Assembly: GCA_964462265.1 (NCBI GenBank) | Contig: CAYWXW010000003.1 | Coordinates: forward strand, 2,868-56,929 | Direction of reading: 5' to 3' | Origin: an uncultured Porticoccaceae bacterium | GTDB lineage: Bacteria > Pseudomonadota > Gammaproteobacteria > Pseudomonadales > Porticoccaceae | DNA: 54,062 nt | The notes under the pieces: generated by a model | Seen by the model: only the letters and a program-made list of their open reading frames with translations | Database searches by the model: none | What the model was told of the DNA's origin: nothing | Shown here: one piece after another, positions 16,555-50,049 of the stretch | Numbering within the stretch: the first letter of the stretch is position 1 | How the letters are laid out: every line of letters begins with the position of its first letter | Translations under genes and position numbers: made by a program

Positions 16555-17010
16555 TTACCATTCCATTATTTTAATATTATTATTACGACTTTCTTGATAT
16601 GTGAGTACTTTAAATTTTATATACTCATCCGTAATAAAAATTGTATTTTCCTTACCAGATTGATCTAAATAAACCCACTCTTTTAGATCATCATTATTTA
16701 TGATTTTGATTAGATCATATTTAACTAATATTTGAGCTATTTTATTACGCAGTCTTAAATTTCTCTCATTTATATTACTATAGTCAGAATGATCTAATGC
16801 ATACATTTCTGACCAATGTACAATATAATATTTATTGCGTCTATGATATAAGTAACATTCCTGTATATATACATCATCTTTTAGTGTGCATATTCTAGCA
16901 ATTGTTTCCCTAACTAATCTATAACCATTTTCATTGATAAATTTAATTTCAATAAAATTTGATAATAATAAAAAATCATTTGATTTAGCTTCTATCGTTT
17001 TTGAAAACAT
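16555..17010 (-). CDS. regA: translational repressor RegA
   Basis: VRETIARICTLKDDVYIQECYLYHRRNKYYIVHWSEMYALD aligns with T4 RegA VKETLTRMGI...YQSCHILQKKGLYYIVHFKEMLRMD, and RNKIAQILVKYDLIKI aligns with RRDSIAWLLEDWGLIEI. The likely start is ATG 17010, which overlaps the gp47 3' end by 26 nt. Confidence 0.85.
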   Translation of the reverse strand: MFSKTIEAKSNDFLLLSNFIEIKFINENGYRLVRETIARICTLKDDVYIQECYLYHRRNKYYIVHWSEMYALDHSDYSNINERNLRLRNKIAQILVKYDLIKIINNDDLKEWVYLDQSGKENTIFITDEYIKFKVLTYQESRNNNIKIMEW

Positions 17011-18022
17011 AAAATCTCTTTTTAACCTCTTCCTCGATATCATCATCTAAAATCAAAGTATTAAAAAAATCTATTTCATTTTCTTCATTTGATTTATTTT
17101 CAACTTCTATTTCTTCAAAAGCAAATTCTTTATTTCTGAAGAAATATTTAACGTCAATTGGTTTATAATTCACATTTACATAGTTTATAATTTTATTTAT
17201 AACATCATTATCATCACTATCTATTGATATTTTAACTTTCTTATTATCAATATTATCAATTACATCAAGCCAATTATCATTATCAAATTCCTTAATATAT
17301 AATTCAATAAAAATATCATCATGCATATATACTGATTTTAGTTCTCTTTTATTATTTAAAATAAAGGTTTCATGATTTGTACCCTCACCAAATTTTGTTT
17401 GATATGGTGATCCCAAGTATACAACATTACGCTTTGTTTGATTTAAATGATAATGACCTGATATTACTTTATCATATTTATTATAAGTAGATCTTTTAAG
17501 CTGACTTGATGTCATAATATATTTATCATTAGTCTGAAATCCGCTCAATTCAAAATGACCCAGTAAAATATAATCACTTTTATTATATTTCATTATATCT
17601 GATATTATTTTTTCATTATTTTCTTTTGGTATCCATGGACATAAAACAATTTTTTCATCATCTAATACCAAAACATCATCTTGAATGAATCTAACATCAC
17701 ATTTGATCTGATTGCTAGCATACTCAAATATTTCTTTAGCTGAGAATATATCATTAACATTGTGATATGTTGAGTCATGATTTCCCATAATAAAATAAAA
17801 GTGATCCACCAATTCCATCATTTTATAATATAATGGTGTGAATATTGCTAAAGATTTATAATGCATATAAGATCTTTTATCACTCCAATCACCCAATATA
17901 ATAACTCTTTTAATTTTTTGAGTTTCTATTATATCAATCATATTATTTAAATATTTAATCGCATAATGTGTTAGAAAAGTATCGTCATTATGATGTAAAT
18001 CTGTCATTAATAATGTTTTCAT
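16985..18022 (-). CDS. gp47: recombination nuclease subunit (T4 gp47, Mre11/SbcD-like)
   Basis: Calcineurin-like phosphoesterase motifs: DLHH, ILGDWSD, MGNHD, LLGHFEL, SGHYH. ATG 18022 forms a TAATG overlap with the upstream gene. Confidence 0.88.
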   Translation of the reverse strand: MKTLLMTDLHHNDDTFLTHYAIKYLNNMIDIIETQKIKRVIILGDWSDKRSYMHYKSLAIFTPLYYKMMELVDHFYFIMGNHDSTYHNVNDIFSAKEIFEYASNQIKCDVRFIQDDVLVLDDEKIVLCPWIPKENNEKIISDIMKYNKSDYILLGHFELSGFQTNDKYIMTSSQLKRSTYNKYDKVISGHYHLNQTKRNVVYLGSPYQTKFGEGTNHETFILNNKRELKSVYMHDDIFIELYIKEFDNDNWLDVIDNIDNKKVKISIDSDDNDVINKIINYVNVNYKPIDVKYFFRNKEFAFEEIEVENKSNEENEIDFFNTLILDDDIEEEVKKRFYVFKNDRS

Positions 18023-18439: not shown

Positions 18440-19309
18440 TTACCAATTTCTCTTTTTACGATCCTTTTTACTTAACCTAAATACTCTTTTATCCCTAACC
18501 TCATTAAATCTTTCATTTATATAATCAGTTGGTATACCCATAGAAGCTCTTTGACCAACAATCCAAAATAAATCACCTTTCTGAATATATGGTATACATT
18601 TAGCTTCATAAATTGGATCTAACAAAATATCATTAAAATATGTAAATTCTTCTTTTTTATAATATTCATGATATGGTGAGTCTGATTTAATTAATTGTAC
18701 TCTTTTTCTCCAATTACGAGGTGCATATTTATCTAATCTTTCTTTTGGATCTGCACCAACTACTATACCAATAACTGGAATATTAATTTTAAGATCAATT
18801 AGACCCCATAACACTCCAGCCAAAGACATACCTGATCCAACAGGCATAACAATTCTTTTTATTTGATTTGGAATATGTTTAAGTTGTTTACGAGTTTGAT
18901 TAATAGCTTCAATAGTTTCCATACCAAAAGGTATTTCTTTATAACCATATTTACGAGCGGCTATTCTTGATCGATTAATTATAACTAAATTATAACCAGC
19001 TTCAACTTGATAAACAGTTGCACCATGAACAACTGCTAATTTAACCTCTGGCATTAATTCACCCTCTGGTGTAAAAACAATAGCAGGTATATTTAATCTA
19101 TTAGCAATCTCCGCAACAATATTAACTTGTGGTGATGATCTACTACCAGCAGTAACTAAACCCTTAGTTTTTTGTGCTAGATACCAACAAGAGCGAACTT
19201 TACCACCACATGATTTACCTATTTTAAATAAATCATCTCTTTTAAAATAAATACCATTCCTAAATTCTACTGGTGTTATTTCAATTGGTTCATATATTTT
19301 ATTTTCCAT
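18440..19309 (-). CDS. PLP-dependent enzyme, ACC deaminase / D-cysteine desulfhydrase family-like
   Basis: FKRDDL...CGGKVRS (the PLP-lysine context of KRDD..GGNKxRK), LVTAGSRSSPQ, MPVGSGMSLAG and ILLDPIYEAK are collinear with E. coli DcyD blocks. Confidence 0.7.
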   Translation of the reverse strand: MENKIYEPIEITPVEFRNGIYFKRDDLFKIGKSCGGKVRSCWYLAQKTKGLVTAGSRSSPQVNIVAEIANRLNIPAIVFTPEGELMPEVKLAVVHGATVYQVEAGYNLVIINRSRIAARKYGYKEIPFGMETIEAINQTRKQLKHIPNQIKRIVMPVGSGMSLAGVLWGLIDLKINIPVIGIVVGADPKERLDKYAPRNWRKRVQLIKSDSPYHEYYKKEEFTYFNDILLDPIYEAKCIPYIQKGDLFWIVGQRASMGIPTDYINERFNEVRDKRVFRLSKKDRKKRNW

Positions 19310-19830: not shown

Positions 19831-20787
19831 CTATAAGATATTTATATCTAAATATATATCATTAATTAATGTTGTGTCAACTTTATTATTATAAATCTGT
19901 TGTATAATTATTGGTTCATATTTATTTTTATTTTTATGTAGTCCTTTATCATTAACGCTAGCACCAATATTCATTTGAACATCTAATTTATCATAAGTAA
20001 ATATATAATAATTTAACCAATACTCAGCAACTTTATTCATAACAAAAGCATTAATATCATATTTCCAGTTAATTTTATAATTCTTTACTGGCATCGTTAA
20101 AATTAACTCATTACCATAATTTTCAACAATCATATATGCTAAAATATCATTATTTGAATTTTCTACGTATGTGATATATGCTGGTTTAAAATTATTTAGA
20201 TTATTTAGATAATATTTAATTCCTTTCATATTTTTATGATGCTTTATCCAATAATCTGTAATTTTTATTAATCTACGCATGGTTAAAGGATCAACTCTAC
20301 GTGTAGTCTCAACTCTTAATTGACCATTTTCCACAAGTTGATTATTTTTATTGATATATGTTCTAACTCGACCCCATTTTTTGCCTTTCATTAAACATAT
20401 CTTTTTAGCAGAATATATAAACTCATCATTTCCTTTATCAATCATGAGATTGTCAATATCTAAACCATAAATAATTACATCATCTATTGTTAATTTAGTT
20501 TTCACACCAATTAATGCTAAATCATTTATAATTTCTAACTCAAGTTTTCTATCATTATTTTTTGTAATTGGTGGTACTAAAAGATAAACATATTTATTAT
20601 TCATTATATGCCCTCTTTTAAAAATCAAAAGAGCTTTTTTATAAAAAGTATATATAAATTTTTTTGATTGTGTTAAATACATAAACGATTTATAGAAACG
20701 ATTATTTAGATTATTATAATATTGTGAATATTTTTCTAAATCATCAAACTCTATATGTTTAAATTTTAGTTCATTTAAAAATGACAT
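19831..20787 (-). CDS. DUF2156 / MprF C-terminal-like (aminoacyl-tRNA-dependent transferase fold) protein, paralog A
   Basis: EFIYSAKKICLMKGKKWGRVRTYINK and NIGASVNDKGLHKNKNKYEP resemble the DYIY..L..L.GKK..KRN.IN.F and N.E.D.G.eGLRkAK.SY.P blocks of DUF2156 as I remember them. ATG 20787 (GGAG upstream) forms a TAATG overlap with paralog B. Confidence 0.5.
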   Translation of the reverse strand: MSFLNELKFKHIEFDDLEKYSQYYNNLNNRFYKSFMYLTQSKKFIYTFYKKALLIFKRGHIMNNKYVYLLVPPITKNNDRKLELEIINDLALIGVKTKLTIDDVIIYGLDIDNLMIDKGNDEFIYSAKKICLMKGKKWGRVRTYINKNNQLVENGQLRVETTRRVDPLTMRRLIKITDYWIKHHKNMKGIKYYLNNLNNFKPAYITYVENSNNDILAYMIVENYGNELILTMPVKNYKINWKYDINAFVMNKVAEYWLNYYIFTYDKLDVQMNIGASVNDKGLHKNKNKYEPIIIQQIYNNKVDTTLINDIYLDINIL

Positions 20788-21842
20788 TATTTTCTCCAAG
20801 TAGATTTTAAGCGTGGATTTGTTATCTTGAGTTTTAAATCCTTTAATAATTTAAATTTATCAAAATTTTTCATTATTAATGATGTATCTGATTCTTTCTT
20901 ATAATGTTTAAGTACTTTAATTGGTTTATATTTCATTTTTTGTTTTTTAAGCTTCCCATTAAAACCACAATAACCTAAATTTATTAAAAAATGATTCCCT
21001 ATTTTATTATACCAATTATCAATACCTCTAAGCAAAATCATCTCATTAGCTTCGGGTAATAAATTATAATCATAATGTCTATAACCAGTTGTTGATAAAA
21101 TATGATCATTTGATATTTTTTCTGTTAATTCATATACAAGTTGTTGTTCACTTTGAACATCATGTATCGATAGATATTGAAACAAATCTAAATTATTGAT
21201 GTCTTTATGATATCGCTTAATATATGCTGATGGGTCTTCCCAAATACGATTATTATTATTTTTCCATCTATTTAACCAATGATCAAGAAGATCTAATGAT
21301 TTACTAATTGTATTATTGGAAGGATTTGTTATAAACAAATTTTCCATTAGATTAATATTTAATTGCTTCTCATATTGATTCTTACGCCATCTAAGTTTTT
21401 TAAAATCTTTACCTTTGAGTTCAATAAGCTTTTCAGAACTAGCAATATAATCATCAAAAGTTGATAAATATTTCCAATCACTATAATTATACCTTTCCAT
21501 ATCTTCTTCAGATATAATTATATTAACACCATGATTTGATAAGTAATCTATTATATCTTTTTCTTTATTGATATCACCATTTTTATTAATTGGTGCAGAA
21601 GATAGAGTTATAGACCCACCTTTTTTTCTCTTATATATTGATAAATTAAAATATAAAAAAGTATCATCAACTATTGTATAAAAATATTTTTCCTGACAAT
21701 ATAAATCTAAAAAACTCATACGTGAGGTTGAATAATCATGTGACTCAAAATATTTATCAAAATACTTTTGAATCTCTAAATGCTTATCAATTGATGGTTT
21801 TTTTATATCAAGATTGTTGAAAAAATCTATAAATTCTTTCAT
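20787..21842 (-). CDS. DUF2156 / MprF C-terminal-like protein, paralog B
   Basis: DDYIASSEKLIELKGKDFKKLRWRKNQ and INLGYCGFNGKLKKQKMKYKP align with the same blocks in paralog A. Confidence 0.5.
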   Translation of the reverse strand: MKEFIDFFNNLDIKKPSIDKHLEIQKYFDKYFESHDYSTSRMSFLDLYCQEKYFYTIVDDTFLYFNLSIYKRKKGGSITLSSAPINKNGDINKEKDIIDYLSNHGVNIIISEEDMERYNYSDWKYLSTFDDYIASSEKLIELKGKDFKKLRWRKNQYEKQLNINLMENLFITNPSNNTISKSLDLLDHWLNRWKNNNNRIWEDPSAYIKRYHKDINNLDLFQYLSIHDVQSEQQLVYELTEKISNDHILSTTGYRHYDYNLLPEANEMILLRGIDNWYNKIGNHFLINLGYCGFNGKLKKQKMKYKPIKVLKHYKKESDTSLIMKNFDKFKLLKDLKLKITNPRLKSTWRK

Positions 21843-28409: not shown

Positions 28410-29516
28410 TTAAATTTTCGTTAATAAAATTTTCTCAATATTATCATAATCCCAATATGGTATAATAACTAATTTAATCCCATTTTTATTTGCGTAATCT
28501 TTTTTTATATTATCTCTTAATTGACTCAATCTAAATTTATTATTATTATTTATGTTACCAAATGAATTATTATTATAATGCTGTTCACCATTATATTCTA
28601 TTAAAATTTGTTGATCAGGTATATAAAAATCAAAAATCAGCTGTTTCTTAAATATACAATCTTTAAATTTCATTTGATGTATATATTTAATTTTCATTTC
28701 CTTTAAAATTTTAATAATCCGCATCTCACCTTTAGATGATTTACATAGTGGACAACCATTACCTCTTTTATGATCTGATAAAACTTGTTCAAATTCTCCA
28801 TGTTTAGGGCATATAATTTTTATTTTTGATGTTGCTCTTAAATTAGGATAATTATATTTTGGATAATTATATTTACCATTATGTATTAATTTACATTCAT
28901 TAATATGTTCATCAAAACTCATTAAATAATTATTAGAGCATAATTTACACCCGTTTCCTTCTAAATGTGATGATAATCTTTGTTTAAATATCCCATGCTT
29001 AGGACATTTAATTTTAACATACTCATTAGCCTTGATACCTTTTTTAATTAAAGAATAATCATATTTATTATTATGAATTTTATTTGCAAGATTTATATAA
29101 TAATCACGTTTCTTTCTTGACTTTGATAATTTTTCAATTCCGCATTTAGGACAACCATAACCATTAATATGTGACGATAATCTTTGTTTAAACCATCCGT
29201 GCTTAGGACATTTAATCATTATTTTATCTTTACACGTTTTTATATCTTGATATTTTGGATAGTGATAAAAATTATCATGTTTTACTTTAGCTTCATTTAT
29301 ATAATCTTGATAACTTTTATCTTTTATATTTGGGTTGCAAGTAGGGCAGATTGCACCAGATTTATGATGTGATAAAAATTGATAAAAAACACCATGTAAA
29401 GGACAAATGATTTGTATTTTTTTATTAGTTATGAATTTTTGATTTAAAGGATACTTATAAAAATAATCATGTTGCAAATTACATTCATGTATATGTTTTT
29501 CCTTAGATTTTTTCAT
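28410..29516 (-). CDS. homing-endonuclease-like protein: four zinc-ribbon repeats plus a Vsr/DUF559-type PD-(D/E)XK nuclease motif
   Basis: Four repeats of I.CP.HG.F.Q.L..H..G.GCP.C, then EMRIIKILKEMKIKYIHQ...LIFDFYIPDQQILIEYNGEQHY. Confidence 0.6.
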   Translation of the reverse strand: MKKSKEKHIHECNLQHDYFYKYPLNQKFITNKKIQIICPLHGVFYQFLSHHKSGAICPTCNPNIKDKSYQDYINEAKVKHDNFYHYPKYQDIKTCKDKIMIKCPKHGWFKQRLSSHINGYGCPKCGIEKLSKSRKKRDYYINLANKIHNNKYDYSLIKKGIKANEYVKIKCPKHGIFKQRLSSHLEGNGCKLCSNNYLMSFDEHINECKLIHNGKYNYPKYNYPNLRATSKIKIICPKHGEFEQVLSDHKRGNGCPLCKSSKGEMRIIKILKEMKIKYIHQMKFKDCIFKKQLIFDFYIPDQQILIEYNGEQHYNNNSFGNINNNNKFRLSQLRDNIKKDYANKNGIKLVIIPYWDYDNIEKILLTKI

Positions 29517-31955: not shown

Positions 31956-33632
31956 TTAATATATATATACAGCATTACCACAATCAAATATTCTTAGATA
32001 ATCATTATTCAACATATTTTGATAACCAGATAAATTAGGATTAAAATTATCCAATATTTTTTCCTGTTTATGTTTTTGAAATTTAAGACGAGAATGTAAA
32101 ATTAATGTATTTTTCTTAAAATAAAAATAATTTGGTTGAGATATTTTTAGTAACTTAAAATTTGATTTAAGATAGCTTTCTCCAGTAAAATATCTTAAAT
32201 CAACATAAGAAATAATTGATGTTGATTTAAGATCATTTACTATAAATTTAATTAATTTAGAAAACCCACCAATAACACTAAATTGCTTAATAGTAAAAGA
32301 TCTTAATATTTCATAATCATAATTTTTATTATATCTCGATTTACCCATAGACATAATATATACTGGCTTATTTTCATAATATAAAGCATATATTTTATCT
32401 GATCTTATATAACCTTGTAGATGGTTCTCTTTAACTAATTTTTTATATAAATCATTATTGATTATTTTAACCTCACACTTACGAGCATATATTTTAATTT
32501 TATTTAAATTTAACCTATTAAAAAGAATTGATTTTACAATGTTATTTTTTAAAATCCATTCATTTTGAAATATATGTATAATATCTATGTTAAAATTTTT
32601 CTTAAAAAACTCACTTTTATCTTTATGATAATTTTTTGATTTTAACTGATCATTATGCCAATATATACCGTCGTATTCAATTCCTAATTTATAATCAGGT
32701 AAATAAACATCGATCTCTAAAGATTTTGAATTAAATGAAAATCTTTTATTATATATTACTTTAATACCATAGCTTTGAATAAATACACCTATTTCTTTTT
32801 CAGCTTTAGATTTACCATATTTATTACATTTTGAACATCCATGTCCGTGTTTATGATTATCTAAAGATTGTTTAAACCAACCATGATTTGGACATTTTAT
32901 CATAATTTTCGTAAAAACACCATCATCTAACTCTTGATATTTAGGATAATGATAAAAGTTCTCATGTGCTTTTTTACAAACCTCTATATTATCACTATAA
33001 GATAATAAACTATTTTTGGTTCTTTTATCATAAGCACATTTAGGGCAACCTTGTCCGCTTAAATGATTTTGTATATTTTGCCTAAAATTTCCATGTATAG
33101 GACATTTTATAACTATATAATCACTACAATTATCTATTTCTTGATTTTTTGGATAGATATAAAAATTATTATGAATTTCTTTAAATCTTTCAATATAATC
33201 ATAATAAGTTTTTTTATGCGTATTTATTAAATTCTCTTTAAAACAATCTTTACAACCAGAATTACCGCTAGCATGTAAACGAACTTTCACCTTAAATTTA
33301 CCATGCTTTGGGCATATAACACTAATTATACTATTATGATTCTTTATTTCTTGATTTTTTGGATAAATGTATTTATTACCATAAACATCTTTAAATTTTA
33401 TTAAATAATCTTCATATTTTTTTACTTTTCTTTTTTTATTACCACATTTAGGACAACCTTGACCACTTAAATGATTCCTTAGAGTTTGTTCAAATTCTCC
33501 ATGTTTAGGGCATATTATCTTTATTTTTGTATTATTATTTTCTATTTCTTGATTTTTTGGATAGATATAAAAATTATTATGAATATCTTTAGCTTTAATT
33601 ATATATTCTTTATATGTTTTCTTTTTAGGCAT
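31956..33632 (-). CDS. homing-endonuclease-like protein (zinc-ribbon repeats, Vsr/DUF559-type nuclease motif, Hef-like C-terminal domain)
   Basis: Four CP.HG.F...H.SGQGCPKC-type repeats paralogous to those in 28410-29516. Then EKEIGVFIQSYGIKV...LEIDVYLPDYKLGIEYDGIYWHN, and ARKCEVKII...ENHLQGY...GGFSKL...SYVDLRYFTGESY, as in T-even Hef-like proteins. Confidence 0.6.
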   Translation of the reverse strand: MPKKKTYKEYIIKAKDIHNNFYIYPKNQEIENNNTKIKIICPKHGEFEQTLRNHLSGQGCPKCGNKKRKVKKYEDYLIKFKDVYGNKYIYPKNQEIKNHNSIISVICPKHGKFKVKVRLHASGNSGCKDCFKENLINTHKKTYYDYIERFKEIHNNFYIYPKNQEIDNCSDYIVIKCPIHGNFRQNIQNHLSGQGCPKCAYDKRTKNSLLSYSDNIEVCKKAHENFYHYPKYQELDDGVFTKIMIKCPNHGWFKQSLDNHKHGHGCSKCNKYGKSKAEKEIGVFIQSYGIKVIYNKRFSFNSKSLEIDVYLPDYKLGIEYDGIYWHNDQLKSKNYHKDKSEFFKKNFNIDIIHIFQNEWILKNNIVKSILFNRLNLNKIKIYARKCEVKIINNDLYKKLVKENHLQGYIRSDKIYALYYENKPVYIMSMGKSRYNKNYDYEILRSFTIKQFSVIGGFSKLIKFIVNDLKSTSIISYVDLRYFTGESYLKSNFKLLKISQPNYFYFKKNTLILHSRLKFQKHKQEKILDNFNPNLSGYQNMLNNDYLRIFDCGNAVYIY

Positions 33633-33662
33633 ATAAATTAATTTTAATCATAACAATAAAAG

Positions 33663-33691
33663 TATAAATATTATATATATTTATATAAATA
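33663..33691 (+). promoter_or_regulatory. two T4-type late promoter octamers upstream of gp13
   Basis: TATAAATA at 33663-33670 and at 33684-33691. The ATG is at 33708, behind AAGAGG. Confidence 0.6.
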
Positions 33692-33707
33692 AATCAAGAG
33701 GTTTATT

Positions 33708-34406
33708 ATGACACAAGCAGAATTAATAGAAAAAATAAAATTACGTCTCGGTATTGAACTTATTGATGTAGAATTAACTGATGATGAAATTAAAGAATGT
33801 ATCGGTGATGCTACTGATAAATTTGTTCGTAGACATTATAACGGGTCTGAAAGATCGGTATATAAACTTGATATTGTTTTAGGTCAGATGCAATATAAAT
33901 TACCTGATTATATTCATGCAGTTACAAGCTATTATAAATTTAATGAATTTTCAACTCCAAATCTCCAAAGATTAGTTCTAACTGAGTTGAATATAATGTA
34001 TGAGTCATCTAACCTTATCAACTTTGCAGTATTCAAAGATTATATAAAAACAATTGAAAAAATACTCATGCCTAATTATGACTTCACATATAACTCAACA
34101 ACCAAAAATATATTCTTTAGACATAAACCAGTAATAGAACCTTTTGAAATTTATCTTGAGGTTTTTACTGATGTTTCACAAACTGATGCTGAATCAATGT
34201 ATGATAATCAATGGTTTATTAAATATTCAACCGAACTATCAAGATTACGTTGGGCGCAAATTGTAGGTAAATATACTAAAAAACTTACTAATGGTGCTGA
34301 ATATAATTATGAGTTTATGTATAATCAGGCTGTTGATGCTATTGAAAAATTAGAAGAAGAATTAGAAACTCAGTTTGCTAATATTATTGATTTCTTTGTT
34401 GACTAA
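33708..34406 (+). CDS. gp13: neck protein (T4 gp13-like)
   Basis: IEKIKLRLGIELIDVELTDDEIKECIGDA matches T4 gp13 [29 protein letters not shown]. The C-terminal helix EKLEEELE resembles EKEALREEL. Confidence 0.75.
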   Translation: MTQAELIEKIKLRLGIELIDVELTDDEIKECIGDATDKFVRRHYNGSERSVYKLDIVLGQMQYKLPDYIHAVTSYYKFNEFSTPNLQRLVLTELNIMYESSNLINFAVFKDYIKTIEKILMPNYDFTYNSTTKNIFFRHKPVIEPFEIYLEVFTDVSQTDAESMYDNQWFIKYSTELSRLRWAQIVGKYTKKLTNGAEYNYEFMYNQAVDAIEKLEEELETQFANIIDFFVD

Positions 34407-34810
34407 TTTTCATTTAAACCTTCAACACCACGGTTTTCTCTATCTTGTTTACGCTTATTTAACCAATAGAGGGCATCTTTTAATGCAGTAATTGTATTAA
34501 TATTCTCTATACAAGGGTATTTTTCATTTAACCCTTCGATAATCATCTTAGCGGCTTCAATAATTGTATCTACCTGACAACCATTTACACCATTCTCTTT
34601 TATCGGTCCATTTTGTAGAGTAAATGCAATTGAATTAACATCTTGTCTAACATATACAAAATTATTTGGTCTTATTTCTTTTTCAAACCATTTATAATCC
34701 ATTGCACCTGATTCATTGAATTTTTCTGGATATTGTTCTCTTAATTTATCCATTATAACTACATCAAATTCACCAATTTTTTTTACATCTTTTAACGTTT
34801 CTAAAGCCAT
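34403..34810 (-). CDS. conserved phage protein of unknown function
   Basis: 135 aa. I have seen the block NGPIKENGVNGCQVDTIIEAAKMIIEGLN...ALYWLNKRKQDRENRGVEG in other phage hypothetical proteins but cannot name the family. Confidence 0.55.
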   Translation of the reverse strand: MALETLKDVKKIGEFDVVIMDKLREQYPEKFNESGAMDYKWFEKEIRPNNFVYVRQDVNSIAFTLQNGPIKENGVNGCQVDTIIEAAKMIIEGLNEKYPCIENINTITALKDALYWLNKRKQDRENRGVEGLNEN

Positions 34811-35134: not shown

Positions 35135-35734
35135 TTAATCTCCTTTAACTAAAATTTTAAGAAACTCAATCCCTTTTTGATCAATTGGAAGAATTTCTTG
35201 TTTATGTTCTACTAAATGTGAAAAATATTTTGTTAACTCTGGAATATCTTTTAAAAGTTTTTTAACAGTAGTATAAGGGCTTATTGTCTTAAAAATTTTA
35301 TCTTTCATTTGCTTTTTTTCATAATAATGATTATTAACTATTTCATGTGCCTTTTTGAAATTTAAATCATTCATATTATAATTACCTTTTCTAATGACTA
35401 TATAAGAATATATCTCATTTGATAATAAATATTTATTAGGTGTAGTTAATCTAAATCTATATGCTTCAATATTACCATATTTATTTACATCACCATTTTT
35501 ATATTCTATATCTACATGATCAGAGTATGCTATTCTATAATTTTGTAAATCATCACCTAAAATATTTTCTATTTCAATATATTTATCTTTTAGTTTTTGA
35601 TATAAATTAGACTCAATAACCAGAGCTAAACATTTTTTCTCTAAATCTTGATAAAACTCTCTTGGAAATTTTTCATCTATTATTATATTTACTAAATCTT
35701 TCTTACGATCATTTGTTAATCTAATTGATGCCAT
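35135..35734 (-). CDS. hypothetical protein
   Basis: 199-aa ORF, tightly packed. Confidence 0.55.
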   Translation of the reverse strand: MASIRLTNDRKKDLVNIIIDEKFPREFYQDLEKKCLALVIESNLYQKLKDKYIEIENILGDDLQNYRIAYSDHVDIEYKNGDVNKYGNIEAYRFRLTTPNKYLLSNEIYSYIVIRKGNYNMNDLNFKKAHEIVNNHYYEKKQMKDKIFKTISPYTTVKKLLKDIPELTKYFSHLVEHKQEILPIDQKGIEFLKILVKGD

Positions 35735-36051: not shown

Positions 36052-37233
36052 TTAATTCCCCAATATAACTGTTAAATTCTTTTTTGCTCTGGTTATTCCA
36101 GTATATAACAACTTCTTACGCATTGCACTATTACCCCAAAGATCTCTCAAAAACAAAACAACATCATCAAATTCAGAACCCTGTGATGAATGTACTGTGA
36201 TTGCATATGCATACTCAAATGTATGCAAACCATACTCATATAAATTTTCAACCATAATATTACGATCAATTTTATCTGTTTCCTCAACAAAAGGAATAAA
36301 ATCGGTTTTAACCTCATCAAATGCAACTGATTTATGATAATATGGTTTAAAGTTTAAAGTATTATTATTCGAGTTGAAATCATCTACTGAGTAACCAATT
36401 AAACCATTGATAAGGTATAGCTCACCCCAACCCATTTCCGAGTTTATAGACCGAGTCCATTGATTTATCTTTGACATCAATTTATCACCAGCAACAGGTA
36501 AAGGTGTTTCACTTGTATCAATACCTCTATAACCTCTCAATTTTCTACTTATTATTGATCTCATTTTATTTGTATTACATATAATTTGATCTGCATTTTT
36601 AAAAACTGATCTGGATGCATTATTAACAATTTTAACATTATCTCCATAATGACCAACTTTTAAATATGGAGATTGTAATACTTCCTCAGCTAATGTAAGA
36701 ATATAATTACCATCTTTATGTCTTATACTTTCTTCTAATCTTACATCTGGGTTTAATACATAATCATGACATTTATTATGTCCAACTGGTGGTAACTGAT
36801 TATGATCACCAAGCCCAATTAGTGGAATACCTAATGATAATAAATCAGCAAATATATCATCTGTTACCATAGATACTTCGTCAATAACAAATAATGCATA
36901 CATATCTTTTAAATTATCTTTTAAATCCTTAATAAAAACTGGTTTACCTGTTTCTTTATCTTTAATTGTACGACAATTATAGCATGTTGAATGTATTGTC
37001 TTAGCGGATGTACCATTTTGATTCATAACATCAACAGCTTTTCCAGTATATGCCATAAAAGCTACTTTATATTGTGGAATACCTAACTCATTTATTATAT
37101 ATTTTACAGAGAACGTTTTTCCACTACCAGCGACCCCAGATATAATAAATGGTTTTTTATTATCTGGTTTATAATTTAAATAAAATTGAACTGCTTTTTT
37201 AACTCCATCTGCTTGAGGTTTTGTAAGTGACAT
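36052..37233 (-). CDS. dda: SF1 helicase (T4 Dda / RecD-like)
   Basis: GVAGSGKTF, VIDEVSMV, GDHNQLPPV, AITVHSSQGSEFD and YTGITRAKK. Confidence 0.88.
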   Translation of the reverse strand: MSLTKPQADGVKKAVQFYLNYKPDNKKPFIISGVAGSGKTFSVKYIINELGIPQYKVAFMAYTGKAVDVMNQNGTSAKTIHSTCYNCRTIKDKETGKPVFIKDLKDNLKDMYALFVIDEVSMVTDDIFADLLSLGIPLIGLGDHNQLPPVGHNKCHDYVLNPDVRLEESIRHKDGNYILTLAEEVLQSPYLKVGHYGDNVKIVNNASRSVFKNADQIICNTNKMRSIISRKLRGYRGIDTSETPLPVAGDKLMSKINQWTRSINSEMGWGELYLINGLIGYSVDDFNSNNNTLNFKPYYHKSVAFDEVKTDFIPFVEETDKIDRNIMVENLYEYGLHTFEYAYAITVHSSQGSEFDDVVLFLRDLWGNSAMRKKLLYTGITRAKKNLTVILGN

Positions 37234-37264
37234 TTTTTGACCTTTTATATTTTAAAATTAAATA

Positions 37265-37279
37265 AATCTTAACAACAAA
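37265..37279 (-). promoter_or_regulatory. copy of recurrent motif TTTGTTGTTAAGATT (upstream of dda)
   Basis: Exact 15-mer in dda orientation, 31 nt upstream of ATG 37233. Confidence 0.5.
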
Positions 37280-37932
37280 TAATATGTACTTTTACTTGAT
37301 TTTTAAAGGGTTGTCAAGTTTTTACTTATCATTTCAAACAATTAACATAAAAAAATATTAAAAAATATCTTGACAACAAAATAAAAATATAATAACGTCA
37401 TACCGTTTAAAGTATTTATATTGTTTTTATAATATTAAATATTATTGGTCTTTGAAAACGTGATTATGGCTCTGTAAATCATGATGAGTAAAAGATCATT
37501 ATGAACCGAGAGAGTTCTTTTTATGGTACTATATGTTATCTCTCTTTAATAAAAAATAAAATACAGTCGTAAACCTAAGTAATTGAGCTAATTTCTGGAA
37601 ATATGGAATTACAACAAGACTCACTTCTTTTTAAATCAATAATATTCTTGGTGAGATGGTAGATATAATAAAAATTTTATATCACAAGAAAACACAGATT
37701 TGTTAGGTTCATGAATCAGTAATATGAATTTTTTAAACCAAATTTAAACATGAAAGTTTATTTTTGTTTATTTACTATTAAGAATTGCCTGTGTCTCAGA
37801 GGTAAGGATATTTTTTTATATTTAAGCACATTTATTGTATATCGATGTTTCACATAAAACTATTTTCATTATTTTTTATGGTTTTCCTAAGATTTAATAA
37901 ATTCCTAGATTGGGTTGTTTTCTTGGTTCCTA

Positions 37933-38020
37933 AAATACCCCTTTAGGGGTATTTACGTGCGTGACGTACGTCCGCGCGCGCGTTCTAGGATATATAATAT
38001 ATATCTCCTAAGAGATATAT
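37933..38020. repeat. cluster of hairpins and palindromes with a GC-rich core
   Basis: AAATACCCC-TTTA-GGGGTATTT (37933-37954). The palindrome GACGTACGTC (37963-37972). CGCGCGCGCG (37973-37982). ATATATCTC-CTAA-GAGATATAT (37999-38020). Confidence 0.9.
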
Positions 38021-38172
38021 TATTATAAAGAAAAGTTTAAAAAGTTTTAAAGGTTTAACAATATGGATGATAAAAATACTAATTAGCTCGCTACGCTCAC
38101 TAAGTTAGATTTTTATTAAACTTCATAAAATAAAAAAAAAGAAAGAAAAGAAAGTATTATTTGTTCAAGTTC

Positions 38173-38470
38173 TAATATTCTTTCTTTCACGTCCGCATGG
38201 GAGGGAAATGGATAGGAAAGAAAAAGCGAGACCTACGGTCGAGTGTTTATAATCTATCACAGGTGATTAAAGAAATATATTATTAATTTTTTTAATGAAT
38301 GAAAAGTAAATAAATAAAATAATATATTCACTTAAAAGAATTATGATTAAAGAATTAATAATATAAAAATATTCACTTGATTAAAGAACTAGAATGATAA
38401 ATAAATAAAATCTATCATCTATTATGAAAATAATATTCACATCAGTAATGAAAGGAAGGATAGTAAAGTA
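38173..38470. repeat. degenerate iteron-like direct repeats
   Basis: GATTAAAGAA x3 (38265, 38345, 38379). ATATTCAC x3 (38324, 38369, 38433), plus ATATTC..TCAC at about 38175. TAAATAAATAAAAT x2 (38307, 38398). GGATAG(G/T)AAAG x2 (38210, 38458). Confidence 0.8.
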
Positions 38471-38691
38471 AGTAATAATTATTCAAGTGCAAAAAGAAGA
38501 TAAGATGTAACTTCTTGTACAAGGTCAGACAGGGTTGCGCCCGCCCCGCCCCGAGTAATTTTATTTTTATATCTGGCTAAAGCTTCTTATGTCCTTTGAT
38601 TTTTTTATATTTTTTAATACTAACATATGCCCCCAATTAAAAAATGGTCTTAAAACTAAAATACGGGCTTAAATATTTTTTTATTATTTCT

Positions 38692-38720
38692 TTGACATTT
38701 TGTTTTTGATTTATTATAAA
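38692..38720 (+). promoter_or_regulatory. sigma70-like promoter TTGACA-N17-TATAAA for the rightward operon
   Basis: TTGACA at 38692-38697, the 17-nt spacer TTTTGTTTTTGATTTAT, and TATAAA at 38715-38720, about 48 nt upstream of ATG 38769. Confidence 0.6.
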
Positions 38721-38733
38721 TATTAACACGATT

Positions 38734-38748
38734 TTTGTTGTTAAGATT
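38734..38748 (+). promoter_or_regulatory. copy of recurrent motif TTTGTTGTTAAGATT
   Basis: Exact 15-mer, 20 nt upstream of ATG 38769 and about 14 nt downstream of the -10 hexamer, so probably in the 5' UTR. Confidence 0.5.
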
Positions 38749-38768
38749 TTTTAAAGGTCACATATAAA

Positions 38769-39179
38769 ATGGAAAAAATATCATTAGAGAAAAAAATAGA
38801 TACTTTTTATTTCAGATTATCATTAAAAGATAATGATTTACTTAGTGTTCATAAAGATATACCAGATATTTATTCTGAGTCAACTTTACTTTATAGTCAG
38901 GCTATGACTAAAATAGCTCAGTTAACAAAAAGAATAAATAGAGATAAATCGAAGTTATATCGTAAATACAGACAAAATACTCAGTTTGATTTAAAAAAAG
39001 GTGAGATTGAAGAATATTATTTAACAAATGATAAGAGTATAAGGGATAAACAATTTAAAATTGATGTACTTGAAATACATATCACCAGATTAGAAAAATT
39101 ATTTCAATTGCTAAACAATATGTCTTTTATAACTGGTAATTTTATAAAAATACAAGAAAAAAGAGGTGTTAAATTATGA
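38769..39179 (+). CDS. hypothetical coiled-coil protein, translationally coupled to gp46
   Basis: 136-aa ORF. An ATGA stop/start overlap joins it to the gp46-like gene. Confidence 0.55.
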   Translation: MEKISLEKKIDTFYFRLSLKDNDLLSVHKDIPDIYSESTLLYSQAMTKIAQLTKRINRDKSKLYRKYRQNTQFDLKKGEIEEYYLTNDKSIRDKQFKIDVLEIHITRLEKLFQLLNNMSFITGNFIKIQEKRGVKL

Positions 39180-41617
39180 TTTCTGAATTAAAATGGATTA
39201 AGTTTAAAAATATATGTTCCGTTGGTGATGATTTAGTTACAATTACTTTAGATGATTCCTTACAGGTTATTACAGGTCTTAATGGTCAAGGTAAAAGTAC
39301 AATTATACAAGCAATATCATATAATTTACTTAATGAGCCTTATTCTAAAACATCAAGATCTTTGTCATTACCTGATTTGATTAATAATAAGAATAATAAA
39401 AAATTATATACAGAATCTTGCATTGTTAAAGATGATAAAGAATATATTATCATAAGAGGACAAAAACCAGATGTTTATAGCATTACATGTAATGGTGATC
39501 CAATACCATTAGAAGGTAAAGTTGATATGCAAGAAAAAATTTATGAAATTATTGGTCATAATAAAAAAGAGTTAAAACAGATGACTTTTTTCTCTCTTGA
39601 GTTTTATCAACCTTTCCTTGATTTAGATATAGATGGTAGACGTAGTTTCATGAGAGAATTTTTTAATTTAGATATTTATGATCATATTGCTTCTAAAGTT
39701 AAAGAATCAGCATCTTTAAATAAGAATAGTTTCATTGAGTATGAATCATCTTTAAAAGCAAAAGAAGAATTATATGATAAAATGAAGCAAAATTATAAAA
39801 CATTTAAGAGTGAAACAAAAGATGAGATAAAAGAATTAAAGGATAGAATTAAAGATAAAAATAATTCAATTGCTAAAATAGAAGAAAAATTAGAAGTTTT
39901 AAATTTTGATTCTAAAGAATTTAAAAATCTATCAATTAAAAAAGAACAAATTAATACAGCAATTTTTAAATGTAATAAAGAACTAGATAAATTAAATGAT
40001 ACTCTTGATTCATATACTGAGATGAAAGATAAATTGGATTTAATTGATATAAAGAAAATTAAAATACATAATCTTAATGATTTACATGAAAAACTAAAAG
40101 ATGCATCTGATGAGATCAATGAGTTAAAAGATTTAAAGATTAAATTAAAATATCAAAAAGAAGATGCAGAAAAATATATAAAAGAAAAAGAAAAAATAAT
40201 AAATGATATAAATGATTATAGGATTGTATTAAAAGATACAAAGAAAGATTACGATAAATTATTAAAGAATATATCTAAAATAGATGAAGATAAAGAAGAT
40301 AAATTATTTAAAATTTATAAGTCTTTTGATAAAAAGAGAGATATTCTTTATGCTGATATAGAAAGACGTAATAAAGATATTGATGCTTTTACTAAAATAG
40401 GTTCAACTTGCCCTCATTGTTACTCTAATTTAGATAATAAACATAAAGAAAGAATACTTAAAGATCTTTTTAATGGTGTTTCTAGGGTTAAAAAAGAGTA
40501 TGATGAATTAACTGAAAAAGAGAAAAAAGCTTATGATGATTATTGTAATATTAGAGATAAGAACGATGAAAATGATAAAAAATTAAAAGCGGTACAAAAT
40601 TACGAGAGAGTTATTAATGATATTAATCAAAATATAAAAGATCTAAACTTAAAATTAGAGTCAAAGGAAGAAATAAATATTAATGCTATAATTAAAAAGA
40701 TCAAAGATATTGATGATGATATAAAATTAATCAAAGATATTAAAATTGATAGTATCGAGAGTGATATAAAAGAAGCAACTAAAAATGATAGAATAATTAA
40801 AGAGTATAATTTTTTAAAAGAAAAATTAAAAGATATAAACATCAAAGACATCACTAAAAAAATTGATGCCTTAGAAGATGAAGATATAGAATTAAATAAT
40901 GATCTTAAAAAACTCAACATAGAGTTTAAAGTATATGAAGAAAAAAGCGAAACATATAAAACACTCCAAGACGATATCAAAAATATAAACGACATCAAAA
41001 AACAGATTAAAGATAAAATTACAATATCAAATACTTTAATAGAAAAAGAAAAAGAGAAAGTTAGAGATTTTAAACAAAATATAAAAGAGCTAAAAAATAG
41101 TTTCTCAGATTTAGAAAAAGAAAAAAGAATAATTGACGCATTACAATTTATTATATCTGATAAAGGAATTAAAAAATATATAATTGGTAAATATATTCCG
41201 TCATTGAACACTTTATTTTATAAATATTCAACTATATTAGAAAGTAATTTTATTTTAAAAATGAAAAATGATATGAGCATAACTGTTAATAGTTTAGGAC
41301 TCGAAAGAAAATATTATACTTTTAGTACCGGTGAGAGATCACAAATCAATTTAATTATTTTACTTTCTTTTATTGAGATGGCTAGACTAATGCATGGTGG
41401 TACTTTTAATAATCTTTTCTTAGATGAATTAACAGCACCATTAGACCCAGATAATACATATAAGATGTTTAAACTACTTAGAACATATTTTGATGATCTC
41501 AAAATATTATTAATCACACATAAAGAAACTGATAAAGAGATGAGTTTTATAGATAAGAGAGTGCAAGTAAAATTAAATAAACAAGGATTTTCTAAATATA
41601 AAATAATAAAAATTTAA
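39176..41617 (+). CDS. gp46: recombination ATPase subunit (T4 gp46, Rad50/SbcC-like) with expanded coiled coil
   Basis: P-loop GLNGQGKST. YIIIRGQKPDVYSITCNG parallels T4 YYIKRGQKPNVFEITVNG. A central CPHC hook-like motif. DKGIKKYIIGKYIP parallels DSGIKGAIIKKYIP. Signature FSTGERSQ and Walker B LFLDE. 813 aa, against about 560 aa in T4. Confidence 0.88.
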   Translation: MISELKWIKFKNICSVGDDLVTITLDDSLQVITGLNGQGKSTIIQAISYNLLNEPYSKTSRSLSLPDLINNKNNKKLYTESCIVKDDKEYIIIRGQKPDVYSITCNGDPIPLEGKVDMQEKIYEIIGHNKKELKQMTFFSLEFYQPFLDLDIDGRRSFMREFFNLDIYDHIASKVKESASLNKNSFIEYESSLKAKEELYDKMKQNYKTFKSETKDEIKELKDRIKDKNNSIAKIEEKLEVLNFDSKEFKNLSIKKEQINTAIFKCNKELDKLNDTLDSYTEMKDKLDLIDIKKIKIHNLNDLHEKLKDASDEINELKDLKIKLKYQKEDAEKYIKEKEKIINDINDYRIVLKDTKKDYDKLLKNISKIDEDKEDKLFKIYKSFDKKRDILYADIERRNKDIDAFTKIGSTCPHCYSNLDNKHKERILKDLFNGVSRVKKEYDELTEKEKKAYDDYCNIRDKNDENDKKLKAVQNYERVINDINQNIKDLNLKLESKEEININAIIKKIKDIDDDIKLIKDIKIDSIESDIKEATKNDRIIKEYNFLKEKLKDINIKDITKKIDALEDEDIELNNDLKKLNIEFKVYEEKSETYKTLQDDIKNINDIKKQIKDKITISNTLIEKEKEKVRDFKQNIKELKNSFSDLEKEKRIIDALQFIISDKGIKKYIIGKYIPSLNTLFYKYSTILESNFILKMKNDMSITVNSLGLERKYYTFSTGERSQINLIILLSFIEMARLMHGGTFNNLFLDELTAPLDPDNTYKMFKLLRTYFDDLKILLITHKETDKEMSFIDKRVQVKLNKQGFSKYKIIKI

Positions 41618-41635
41618 TGTGGGGTATTTGTTGTT

Positions 41636-44631: not shown

Positions 44632-44811
44632 ATGAACAAATGCACAGGCGAAATGGAAGTCTTCAGCCGAGTTGTTGGTTATTACCGTCCAGTTAGTAGT
44701 TGGAATAAAGGTAAAAAACATGAATTTTTTATGAGAAAAACCTTTAAGATGCCAGAATTGGAAGATGTAGAAACTGATGATGATAGATCACTTCTATCTG
44801 TAGCAGATTAA
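44632..44811 (+). CDS. stand-alone NrdD C-terminal glycyl-radical-domain-like peptide (59 aa, below the track cutoff)
   Basis: Hand translation gives MNKCTGEMEVFSRVVGYYRPVSSWNKGKKHEFFMRKTFKMPELEDVETDDDRSLLSVAD. AAGAGG lies 5 nt upstream. SRVxGYxRPVxxWNxGKxxEF is the class III RNR glycyl radical region pattern. Confidence 0.6.
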   Translation: MNKCTGEMEVFSRVVGYYRPVSSWNKGKKHEFFMRKTFKMPELEDVETDDDRSLLSVAD

Positions 44812-45301: not shown

Positions 45302-45316
45302 TTTGTTGTTAAGATT
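45302..45316 (+). promoter_or_regulatory. copy of recurrent motif TTTGTTGTTAAGATT
   Basis: Exact 15-mer, 14 nt upstream of ATG 45331. Confidence 0.5.
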
Positions 45317-48552: not shown

Positions 48553-50049
48553 ATGATGTATACTCTTTATAAAGGCATTTTTATTTTTATTGCTGTTTCT
48601 TATTCTTATTTTTTGAGATTCATAACAACAGATTTAGTTATGAACATATTTTATATACTTAAAGGTTTTTTTGACGGAGAACTTTTTTGCGCTATTAGTG
48701 GTAAAGAACAATTTTATAAAGTTAAACAAGCCAATTCAGAAAAAGAAAAAGATCAATGGATAACAAGAGTTTATGAATATTTAGAAGACCCACTGCATGG
48801 TAAAATTGATTGGTTTCCTAGATTTTTAACTGTTATTATTCTAAGACGTTATTATGGAGATTGTGTTGCCGAGTATGAAAAAATAATTACAGAAAGAGGA
48901 AATATACCCATTAAAGATTTAAATAAAAATGATAAAGTTTTATCCTATAATTTTAATTTAAAGAAATATGAATTTAAAGAAATACTAAATCACGTCAATA
49001 AAGGTAAAAAAAATATTGTACGAGTACATTATAAAACTGGTAATTATAGCGATTTTACACCTGATCATAAAATATATCATGGGAATATAGATTATAAAGT
49101 ATCTAAAATAAAAGACATTGACATAAATAACCATAATGAAAGGAAAGTGCCAGTTATAACTAAAATGCCATATACAATTCAAGATAATGATTATTATACT
49201 GAGGATATTTGTTTTTTATTGGGTTATTATATGGCTGAAGGTTATTATTATAAAAAACGATGTTATATAGGTGGTCACGATATACCTAAATATATAATAC
49301 CAATACTAGATAAATATGATATTAAATATTCTTTGAAAATAAGAGAAGGTGATAATTTACCAATTATAGAATTTTTAACCTCTGATTTTCGTAATAATAT
49401 ATTAGGTGAGATGGTTTTAAATAGTTTTAATATTAATCCACCAAAAATATTATATAATTTACCACCTAAAAAACTTCAAAAAATATTAGATGGATATTTT
49501 TTAGGTGATGGTCATATGAGAGAAAATAAAGAAAAATGTTATTCCACATCTTGTGATATTTTAAAAGATTTTATTGTTGAAATATCTTTTAAAATTGGAA
49601 ATCCTGTTGCACCATATCATCAGTTAAAACATGGTGGTGTTGGTAATAAACCGATTTGGAGAATATATGATCGCCCAAAAGCGTTTCATAAAAAAAATTA
49701 TGGTTATACTAATTTAAGTGAAACACATATTAAAAAAATTGAAAACTTAAATGATAAAGTTAATGTTTATGATATTGAGGTTAAAGATAATCATAACTTT
49801 ATTATGGCAAATAGTGGAGTAATAGTCCATAATTGTGACGATTTTGGAATATTAGCTAGATATATGTATGGTGACGGTAAACTTTATTCAATATTACCAT
49901 ATAATAAAAAATATTGGAATAGAATGCATGTTGTCTATGTACGTAATAATAAAATATATAGTTCTGATAAAATATATTTTATGAGTTTACAAGAGTATTT
50001 AGATAGATATTATAATAGTATTGATTATTTTAAATTAAAAGTTATTTAA
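48553..50049 (+). CDS. membrane-anchored transglutaminase-like (BTLCP-type) cysteine peptidase interrupted by an intein
   Basis: The joined exteins read ...DWFPRFLTVIILRRYYGD|CDDFGILARYMYGDG...MHVVYV...SSD, a GDC(D/E)D(F/Y) Cys-His-Asp layout. There is an N-terminal hydrophobic segment. Confidence 0.6.
   Translation: MMYTLYKGIFIFIAVSYSYFLRFITTDLVMNIFYILKGFFDGELFCAISGKEQFYKVKQANSEKEKDQWITRVYEYLEDPLHGKIDWFPRFLTVIILRRYYGDCVAEYEKIITERGNIPIKDLNKNDKVLSYNFNLKKYEFKEILNHVNKGKKNIVRVHYKTGNYSDFTPDHKIYHGNIDYKVSKIKDIDINNHNERKVPVITKMPYTIQDNDYYTEDICFLLGYYMAEGYYYKKRCYIGGHDIPKYIIPILDKYDIKYSLKIREGDNLPIIEFLTSDFRNNILGEMVLNSFNINPPKILYNLPPKKLQKILDGYFLGDGHMRENKEKCYSTSCDILKDFIVEISFKIGNPVAPYHQLKHGGVGNKPIWRIYDRPKAFHKKNYGYTNLSETHIKKIENLNDKVNVYDIEVKDNHNFIMANSGVIVHNCDDFGILARYMYGDGKLYSILPYNKKYWNRMHVVYVRNNKIYSSDKIYFMSLQEYLDRYYNSIDYFKLKVI
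48862..49833 (+). mobile_element. class 1 intein with LAGLIDADG homing endonuclease domain (324 aa)
   Basis: Starts CVAEYEKIITERGNIPIKDL. Block B is FTPDH. LAGLIDADG motifs LLGYYMAEGY and ILDGYFLGDGH. Ends VYDIEVKDNHNFIMANSGVIVHN, followed by the +1 Cys. Confidence 0.85.

Follow-up and report, generated by a model that had tools for sequence, protein, structure and literature searches.

A gene-free island between the dda and uvsY-like operons of an uncultivated T4-like phage: a possible replication origin or control region

The gene-free island and its flanks

Replication origins of T4-like phages are poorly defined, and in T4 itself oriF and oriG are the only ones understood mechanistically. 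Here, we describe a large non-coding island in a stretch of DNA of 54,062 nucleotides (hereafter the window: contig CAYWXW010000003.1 of GenBank assembly GCA_964462265.1, positions 2,868 to 56,929 of the forward strand, filed under an uncultured Porticoccaceae bacterium), which belongs to a phage of a deep, uncultivated T4-like lineage with a GC content of about 25%. The island occupies 1,535 nt between two divergent operons, with a gene for a Dda-like helicase on its left and, on its right, a probable uvsY-like gene followed by a gene for an SbcC/gp46-like ATPase (Table 1). We tentatively read it as cis-acting DNA, most likely a replication origin or control region between the two operons.

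The island is the only large gap in the window that lacks open reading frames (ORFs). Neither strand holds an ORF of 60 aa or more, and the runner-up real gap measures 95 nt when ORFs of at least 50 aa are counted, both in agreement with the first-pass annotation of this DNA, which had singled out the region and had put the gaps elsewhere at about 95 nt at most. (An apparent 605-nt gap at 220-824 is no true gap, as a minus-strand gene there runs off the end of the window.) The annotation had reported only ORFs of 13-34 codons inside the island; all are indeed short, with the longest slightly above that range at 37 aa (TTG start, 37915-38028) and 35 aa (ATG start, 37750-37857). It had also named the flanks as the dda and gp46 operons. 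This holds for the Dda-like gene on the left and for the presence of a gp46-like gene in the right-hand operon, but the first gene of that operon is the probable uvsY-like one. The minimum of the cumulative G-C skew of the window falls at about 36-37 kb, adjoining the island, and gene orientation flips there too.

Searches for known elements were empty. ARAGORN found no tRNA or tmRNA gene in the whole window, just as no tRNA could be folded by hand in the first pass, and a terminator scan of the window found no intrinsic terminators. Rfam 15, one of the checks proposed for a structured RNA, matched no family in the island at the gathering score and gave noise alone at E up to 10, the best match reaching 23 bits against a gathering score of 90; no family was matched in the islands of relatives either. 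In nucleotide comparisons with phage and plasmid collections, the island yielded nothing but one 58-nt chance match. IMG/VR, searched by protein and by the C-rich motif of the island, returned chance matches alone, in GC-rich contigs; scans of JGI metagenomes added no contig beyond the one already known, and GTDB genomes contained no match to the loop-hairpin sequence described below.

Table 1. Coordinates of the island, its parts and flanking genes, and of related sites elsewhere in the window
Feature	Position	Strand	Remarks
RegA homologue	16555-17046	-	PF01818, 51.9 bits vs cut-off 25
Dda-like helicase (left flank)	36052-37233	-	phrog_325, E 1e-69
Island	37234-38768		1,535 nt
15-mer TTTGTTGTTAAGATT, exact, in dda leader	37265-37279	-	Between the -10 box and the AAAGGT Shine-Dalgarno sequence
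Pdda, outward sigma70-type promoter	37289-37317	-	-35 TTGACA (37317-37312), 17-nt spacer, -10 TAAAAG (37294-37289); own scan and sequence
Leader-motif copy TTTGTTGTCAAGATA, 2 mismatches	37366-37380	-	Repeat families D8, I16
Block TTAAGAATTGCCT...CTCAGAGG	37778-37802		Common to the closest relative (L007 380-423); z = 3.6
H1, C4/G4 hairpin AAATACCCC-TTTA-GGGGTATTT	37933-37954
H2, alternating purine-pyrimidine (CG/TG) tract ACGTGCGTGACGTACGTCCGCGCGCGCGT	37955-37983		Self-complementary, Z-DNA-prone
H3, AT-rich palindrome TATAATATATATCTC-CTAA-GAGATATATTATTATA	37992-38028
Stem-loop with 11-nt loop TCGCTACGCTC	38072-38114	-	Loop at 38088-38098
Purine-run hairpin GAAAGAAAAGAAAG...CTTTCTTTC	38137-38190		Overlaps one copy of the 47-nt degenerate repeat D1
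Second mini-hairpin, GACC-GTA-GGTC	38230-38240	-	CCGTAGG at 38232-38238; inside the left GC-rich block
AT-rich segment, DNA-unwinding-element-like	38248-38447		14-16% GC
C-rich block GTTGCGCCCGCCCCGCCCCG	38534-38553		Part of the right GC-rich flank; conserved with L009, L028 and L033 types
PuvsY, outward sigma70-type promoter	38692-38720	+	-35 TTGACA (38692-38697), 17-nt spacer, -10 TATAAA (38715-38720); own scan
15-mer TTTGTTGTTAAGATT, exact, in right-hand operon leader	38734-38748	+
Probable uvsY-like gene, first of right-hand operon	38769-39179	+	136 aa
SbcC/gp46-like ATPase (right flank)	39176-41617	+	phrog_77, E 4e-78
Third exact TTTGTTGTTAAGATT copy	45302-45316	+	Downstream of another promoter

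Conservation of the island among relatives

Relatives were reached through the flanking proteins and then through the contigs that encode them. Those with flanking proteins 37-66% identical to the window keep an ORF-free island in the same place, of 1,487 nt in L009/L031 (Dda 50%, gp46 37% identity to the window), 1,228 nt in L023 (UvsY-like protein 64%), 1,138 nt in L028 (UvsY-like protein 52%) and at least 898 nt in L007 (Dda 66%). The alignment with related phages that had been proposed at the outset thus finds the ORF-free island preserved in both position and size. A decayed pseudogene region, the outcome that had been named as fatal to the first-pass view, is contradicted, because the relatives are also gene-free there and tblastn with their island-adjacent proteins found no similarity in the window. 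PuvsY is conserved in L023 and in the L009 type.

Members of the L009 subclade share 82-86% identity over the right ~650 nt of the island, a level as high as that of adjacent coding DNA (80-87%) and above that of third codon positions (61-71%), which argues for purifying selection in this subclade. No alignment of the left half was possible among the L009, L028 and L033 types, and a MAFFT alignment of the window with the L009 subclade proved unreliable.

The gene at the left edge of the island differs from one relative to another. It encodes a 201-aa HTH_36/DnaD_N-like (winged-helix) protein in L009 (HTH_36, 39 bits), and the neighbours in L028 and L006 are winged-helix-like proteins of 152, 126 and 137 aa. 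In L023, the neighbour is a protein of 628 aa with primase-like motifs; we dropped its assignment as an archaeo-eukaryotic-type primase, since the motifs were recognized by eye alone and sequence searches of Pfam and the PDB were empty. Just downstream of the 201-aa HTH_36 gene, L009 carries an exact 18-nt direct repeat, AGGTGTGACAAAATTGAC (8313-8330 and 8405-8422, 92 nt apart), which does not occur in the window and may provide binding sites for the HTH_36 protein.

Two further observations concern the relatives' contigs. Five independent assemblies (L004, L007, L026, L030 and L033) break inside the island, each at a different place, which suggests strain-level variability or a loss of coverage in extreme AT-rich or palindromic DNA. 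In addition, IS200/IS605-type TnpA (Y1 transposase) genes are found near dda in L006 (3126-4708, with TnpB) and L028 (547-915); a link between these elements and the island was rejected, as they lie outside the islands.

Palindromes, unwinding segment and repeats

As the first-pass annotation had described, the island contains a cluster of palindromes and GC-rich islands. The cluster spans 37933-38028 and consists of H1, H2 and H3 (Table 1). A 161-nt segment around it (37890-38050) folds far better than shuffled sequences on both strands (z = -6.2), and throughout the island local folding scores stand out only at such strand-symmetric palindromes. Hairpins of the Cn-loop-Gn kind, like H1, are present in four of the five relative types (L007 293-312, L009 8745-8760, L028 and L033; none was seen in L023), and CG/TG tracts like H2 occur in L007 (340-356) and L028 (2392-2411). 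The block TTAAGAATTGCCT...CTCAGAGG is among the few alignable pieces of the left half. We also considered the C4/G4 hairpin as an intrinsic terminator, but its U-tails are weak and inconsistent among the relatives, and the terminator scan did not report it.

To the right of the palindromes lies the AT-rich segment, which ranks second in the window for ease of melting at 100 and 200 bp and third at 60 bp (top 0.01-0.07%). It contains degenerate repeats, with three occurrences each of TGATTAAAGAAnTA and ATATTCAC (families D4-D6), and is bordered by GC-rich blocks at 38186-38245 and 38515-38560. The degenerate direct repeats of the island had been called iteron-like; the repeats are real, but in the window they are too degenerate and too unevenly spaced for that term, which is a generous one here. 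Clean 27-nt repeats are found only in the L009-type relatives (three copies in L009, at spacings of 52 and 46 nt). Of all stretches in the window, the one at 33512-33711, outside the island, melts most easily; it surrounds a second divergent intergenic region of 75 nt, between an HNH gene and a gp13-like gene, that carries TATAAATA-like boxes.

A family of capped stem-loops

The 11-nt loop TCGCTACGCTC occurs once in the window, inside the island, and in the relatives it is likewise confined to islands, with five copies in L009 (in a locus of 21 kb), three and a variant in L028, and two each in L033 and L026. Of the 12 copies, ten are located in hairpin loops, on stems that are not related in sequence; two more copies, diverged but also placed in hairpins, emerged in L007 and L028 when the scan was widened. 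When the flanks were shuffled, the Fisher combined p for eight distinct stems was about 2e-7, and the chance expectation for an 11-mer common to the window and these distant relatives is about 0.001. The motif is found in both orientations within one island. Mobile REP/MITE-like elements were ruled out as its source, given its confinement to the island.

The minus-strand sequence complementary to the loop, GAGCGTAGCGA, holds GCGTAGC (38090-38096), a match to GCGNAGC, and G.A/A.G mismatches lie between this mini-hairpin and the AT-rich stem. DNA of the form GCGNAGC/GCGNNAGC (any N) folds into an extraordinarily stable mini-hairpin that contains two G-C pairs plus a sheared G.A pair (PMC13037366), and occurrences of the consensus are on record for the complementary-strand origins of G4, St-1 and alpha3, for RSF1010 ssiA and for N4 early promoters (PMC13037366; PMC8567376).

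The positional counterpart in L009 (8712-8722) of the second mini-hairpin of the window reads GCGTAGC. The copies take the forms GCG-T-AGC, GCG-C-AGC and GCG-AT-AGC at one aligned position and GCGTAAGC, GCGAAAGC and GCGTTAGC elsewhere; variation is confined to the free N positions with one exception, GCATAGC in L009. Between L009 and L026 the stem mismatch is swapped from G.A to A.G, a change that is sensible on the G-rich strand only. As estimated from counts, mini-hairpin motifs are about 10 times denser inside the islands than outside. The left and central copies have the sense of dda, and the rightmost copy in L009-type islands is on the opposite strand. Loops of GATA and GTTA break the GNRA rule for RNA, and a role at the DNA level is therefore favored.

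Promoters, leaders and the probable UvsY gene

According to our own scan, Pdda and PuvsY are the only strong sigma70-type promoters in the region, both directed outward, and the 1,374 bp between them (37318-38691) hold no strong internal promoter of this type. Each of the two is followed after 9-13 nt by the 15-mer TTTGTTGTTAAGATT and then by an AAAGGT Shine-Dalgarno sequence. These two exact inverted copies had been taken to bracket the island. The copies are there, but they mark no boundary: the bracket is the consequence of two divergent promoter-leader cassettes, and the generic leader motif TTTGTTGTTA that follows both promoters recurs before other genes. The mismatched copy TTTGTTGTCAAGATA belongs to a 25-nt direct duplication of 37256-37280.

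The core TTTGTTGTT is found at eight sites in the window, against 1.7 expected. Seven of the eight are in sense orientation and precede a start codon by no more than 35 nt, an annotated start codon is spanned at 41627, and the core is often continuous with the Shine-Dalgarno sequence or the ATG (TTTGTTGTTAGGAGA, TTTGTTGTTATGAAA). Sites of the form TTTGTTG(T/C)TA, at 9805, 14502, 18434, 19804, 27677 and 45302, lie just 5' of start codons, and the one at 41627 lies across its start codon. Because the phage encodes a RegA homologue, the leader 15-mers may be RegA-type operators, with UUUGUUGUUAAGAUU and its variants as predicted targets. The consensus obtained by SELEX for T4 RegA is aaAAUUGUUAUGUAA (PMC3014915), with which the window variants UUUGUUGUUAUGAAA have UUGUUAUG in common, and the motif, being A+U-rich and lying 5' of or across start codons, may be comparable to the T4 operators. 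In contrast to those operators, the exact TTTGTTGTTAAGATT copies lie 14-31 nt upstream of the AUG rather than over it and lack a 5' poly(A) tract. Whichever reading of the island holds, these sites constitute a candidate set of RegA-type operators for a very distant relative of T4.

The product of the first gene to the right of the island is probably a divergent UvsY recombination mediator, an assignment that we make with moderate confidence from family and structure comparisons. The Pfam UvsY model matches five of six members of the protein family, all below threshold. An AlphaFold2 model of the 136-aa protein has a mean pLDDT of 82, and its top fold match in the PDB is T4 UvsY over the full length (probability 0.85); matches in BFVD at TM 0.73-0.75 include UvsY-type proteins of a cyanophage and a Campylobacter phage.

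Other features of the phage

The T4-like assignment is founded on both structural and replication genes. The structural core includes the portal protein gp20, a prohead protease and the gp13 and gp14 neck proteins, and the replication set includes a family B DNA polymerase, gp32, the gp44 clamp loader and a T4-type RNase H, along with UvsW, topoisomerase II subunits, Dda, the gp46-like ATPase and RegA. UvsW is only about 28% identical to that of the nearest cultured T4-like phages. The nearest named homologues of Dda, at about 37% identity, come from AR9/PBS1 and Staphylococcus jumbo phages, for which reason promoters of the AR9/PBS1 type (AACA-N6-TW) were considered; they were dropped for a T4-like phage with sigma70-type promoters. 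Identical sequence was found in a 57.5-kb JGI metagenome contig and in a Logan assembly.

Several other genes deserve mention. Two encode homing endonucleases of a DUF723/zinc-ribbon HNH type (31956-33632 and 28410-29516, both on the minus strand), and the relative L006 has a related one (7142-8812); a 498-aa ORF (48553-50049, plus strand) contains an intein splicing domain and a weak, sub-threshold match of the LAGLIDADG type. A 135-aa protein (34403-34810, minus strand) has a precomputed match to the Acb2/Tad1 hairpin family PF24729 and is a possible sponge for cyclic-nucleotide defense signals. Two adjacent LPG_synthase_C-like proteins, a PLP-dependent enzyme and a weak Nmad5 match (19831-21842, 18440-19309 and 35135-35734, all on the minus strand) might together form a DNA or nucleotide modification module. 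Finally, a stand-alone 59-aa ORF with a match to NrdD (glycyl-radical), at about 44632-44811 on the plus strand and at 11864-12043 in L002, resembles a spare-part glycyl-radical domain.

Possible functions of the island

The first-pass annotation had offered a replication origin as one reading of the island and structured non-coding RNAs or a regulatory hub as others. Since there are no ORFs, no known RNA family and no strong internal promoter, folding is notable only at palindromes and the loops follow DNA rules, cis-acting DNA fits the island better than a gene does; the cruciform-prone palindromes, the Z-DNA-prone tract and the unwinding segment all answer to the negative supercoiling that would be expected between divergent promoters, which argues in the same direction. 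Action as RNA, either as one or more structured non-coding RNAs or as long 5' leaders of the dda and uvsY-gp46 operons, is a real but minority possibility, in which the capped hairpins, with their GUA/GNRA-like loops, would contribute to stability, processing, antitermination or protein binding. Conserved loops on variable stems are a classic signature of RNA, conservation of the right half reaches coding-like levels in the L009 subclade, and one G-to-A change in L009 preserves a G-U pair on the plus strand; however, the covariation term from RNAalifold, run on four L009-type sequences, was about zero, with compensatory changes at only 4 of 88 pairs, and the loop motif is present in both orientations within one island. 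Loops of GUAA and GAAA obey the GNRA rule, but GAUA, GUUA and the dominant GUA triloop fall outside it. The plus strand of 38050-38520 is purine-rich like the sense strands of the window, and the L023 island has a canonical plus-strand intrinsic terminator (GGCCTTG-GAA-CAAGGCC, then TTTT), while in the window the scans detected neither a strong internal sigma70-type promoter nor a terminator. With no Rfam family, weak covariation and folding limited to palindromes, the structured-RNA alternative gained no positive evidence; were the region transcribed nonetheless, it would represent a new large phage RNA.

The persistence of the ORF-free state and of its size, over a range of 37-66% identity in the flanking proteins, makes it improbable that the island is simply a fast-evolving, plastic region of small-gene remnants, duplicated promoter-leader cassettes and incidental hairpins, in which the promoters alone are functional. 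Much of the region does behave as this explanation predicts: alignment of the left and central parts with L007 and L023 fails even though the flanking genes are 77% identical, the left half also diverges beyond alignment among other relative types, the left-edge genes of the relatives differ (201, 152, 126/137 and 628 aa), the leader module has been duplicated (repeat D8), and several assemblies break inside the island. Yet the right half in the L009 subclade is conserved above neutral sites, an island-specific 11-mer is retained within hairpins of distant relatives, the Cn/Gn hairpin, CG/TG tracts and C-rich block recur in most of them, and the window has no similarity to the relatives' neighboring proteins. 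It is very improbable that the island serves as a genome terminus or as a site of programmed fragility or recombination, at which hairpins are cut (for example by the adjacent gp46/47-type nuclease, so as to seed recombination-dependent replication) or packaging ends are formed. A dense palindrome cluster does adjoin recombination genes (uvsY-like and gp46-like), and the contigs of several relatives end inside the island, but these ends are scattered in AT-rich or variable parts, three independent assemblies cross the island uninterrupted, and cleavage of the hairpins is conjectural. By analogy with T4, the T4-type portal suggests headful packaging without a fixed site, contrary to a terminus.

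An origin or control region remains the best supported of these readings, given the position at a point of divergence and near the skew minimum, the ease of melting, the mini-hairpins, the proximity of a probable uvsY and the replication-type DNA-binding genes beside the island in relatives. On the twin-domain model, transcription diverging from Pdda and PuvsY would underwind the DNA between them; the AT-rich segment would then melt and the hairpins would be extruded. One possibility is that an R-loop formed by the PuvsY transcript provides the primer, as at T4 oriF; another is that the capped stem-loops resist single-strand-binding protein and act as priming or loading signals, as in G4-type and IncQ ssi systems. 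Replication would start after R-loop priming, hairpin priming or both. In the relatives, the variable winged-helix genes and one possibly primase-like gene beside the island may supply dedicated initiators.

Several points weigh against this proposal, the support for which comes from sequence and models and is circumstantial. A change of gene orientation at the same place confounds the skew minimum, and the match to the mini-hairpin consensus was noticed after the fact. Opposite-strand mini-hairpins occur in L009, L028, L033 and L026, but both copies in the window are on the minus strand. The window repeats are only 71-93% identical, with spacings of 34, 80, 95 and 318 nt, and no initiator gene adjoins the island in the window when the relatives' small genes are used as queries. 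The island of the window can be aligned with those of L007 and L023 at the promoters and a few blocks only, with the flanking genes at 77% identity, so that purifying selection is demonstrated in the other subclade alone. An hhalign comparison of the 136-aa protein with T4 UvsY was not significant. For T4 oriF, about 100 bp suffice, compared to 1.4 kb of extra structured DNA upstream here; oriF has no such hairpins, and all mini-hairpin matches in the T4 uvsY region are inside coding genes, with none located at the origin.

Comparison with known systems

T4 oriF and oriG each consist of a promoter and an AT-rich unwinding element, oriE, oriF and oriG lie at points of transcriptional divergence with a shift in skew, and T4 origins have no motif in common (PMC3016281). 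The island described here, in a T4-like phage, also lies at a point of divergent transcription. According to the T4 record, oriF is located 6 nt inside uvsY, with the transcript of that gene serving as primer; in the window, PuvsY stands directly upstream of the probable uvsY, and the DNA downstream (38700-38850) is 17-19% GC. The T4 promoter is a MotA-dependent middle promoter, whereas PuvsY has a sigma70 -35 box (TTGACA) and no MotA-type promoter was seen. In being of the early type, PuvsY resembles the promoter reported for oriE, which combines it with iterons whose role is unproven even there (PMC3016281). Both oriE and iteron plasmids share with the island clustered direct repeats near an early-type promoter, and in L009 the resemblance extends to the 27-nt repeats and the adjoining HTH_36/DnaD_N-like gene. 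The window itself departs from iteron origins, with repeats that are neither near-identical nor evenly spaced and no adjoining initiator gene.

The oriV of IncQ plasmids has direct repeats, a GC-rich block and an AT-rich segment, a layout that the DNA alongside the hairpins resembles. The stem-loops provide a second parallel: the ssi signals of G4, St-1 and alpha3 and of RSF1010 (ssiA and ssiB) are hairpins topped, as in the island, by a mini-hairpin of the GCGNAGC/GCGNNAGC or CCGAAGG type, and in L009-type relatives two copies on opposite strands form an inverted pair about 235 nt apart, as do ssiA and ssiB (PMC8567376). In contrast to ssiA and ssiB, the two copies in the window are on the same, minus strand; moreover, the ssi systems belong to single-stranded DNA phages and small plasmids rather than to a large double-stranded DNA phage, and no RepB'-type primase was identified here.

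To our knowledge, capped stem-loop signals of the ssi type have so far been described only in single-stranded DNA phages and IncQ plasmids. Nothing similar to the island was found in Rfam or in phage and plasmid collections, and the capped stem-loop family is the component most worth testing. Whatever its function, the clade offers a compact non-coding region, conserved in position, with a recognizable signature of loop motif, GC-flanked unwinding segment and uvsY-proximal promoter. A more specific proposal, which we regard as rather doubtful, is that the island represents an undescribed kind of double-stranded DNA phage origin, in which mini-hairpin-capped stem-loops, extruded between divergent promoters, act as strand-specific priming or loading signals and are conserved across the clade while varied initiators are recruited to them. 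If the hairpins do serve as priming or loading signals, they would provide a sequence rule for locating origins in the genomes of uncultivated phages, and would link initiation of the ssi type, as in G4 and RSF1010, to large double-stranded DNA phages.

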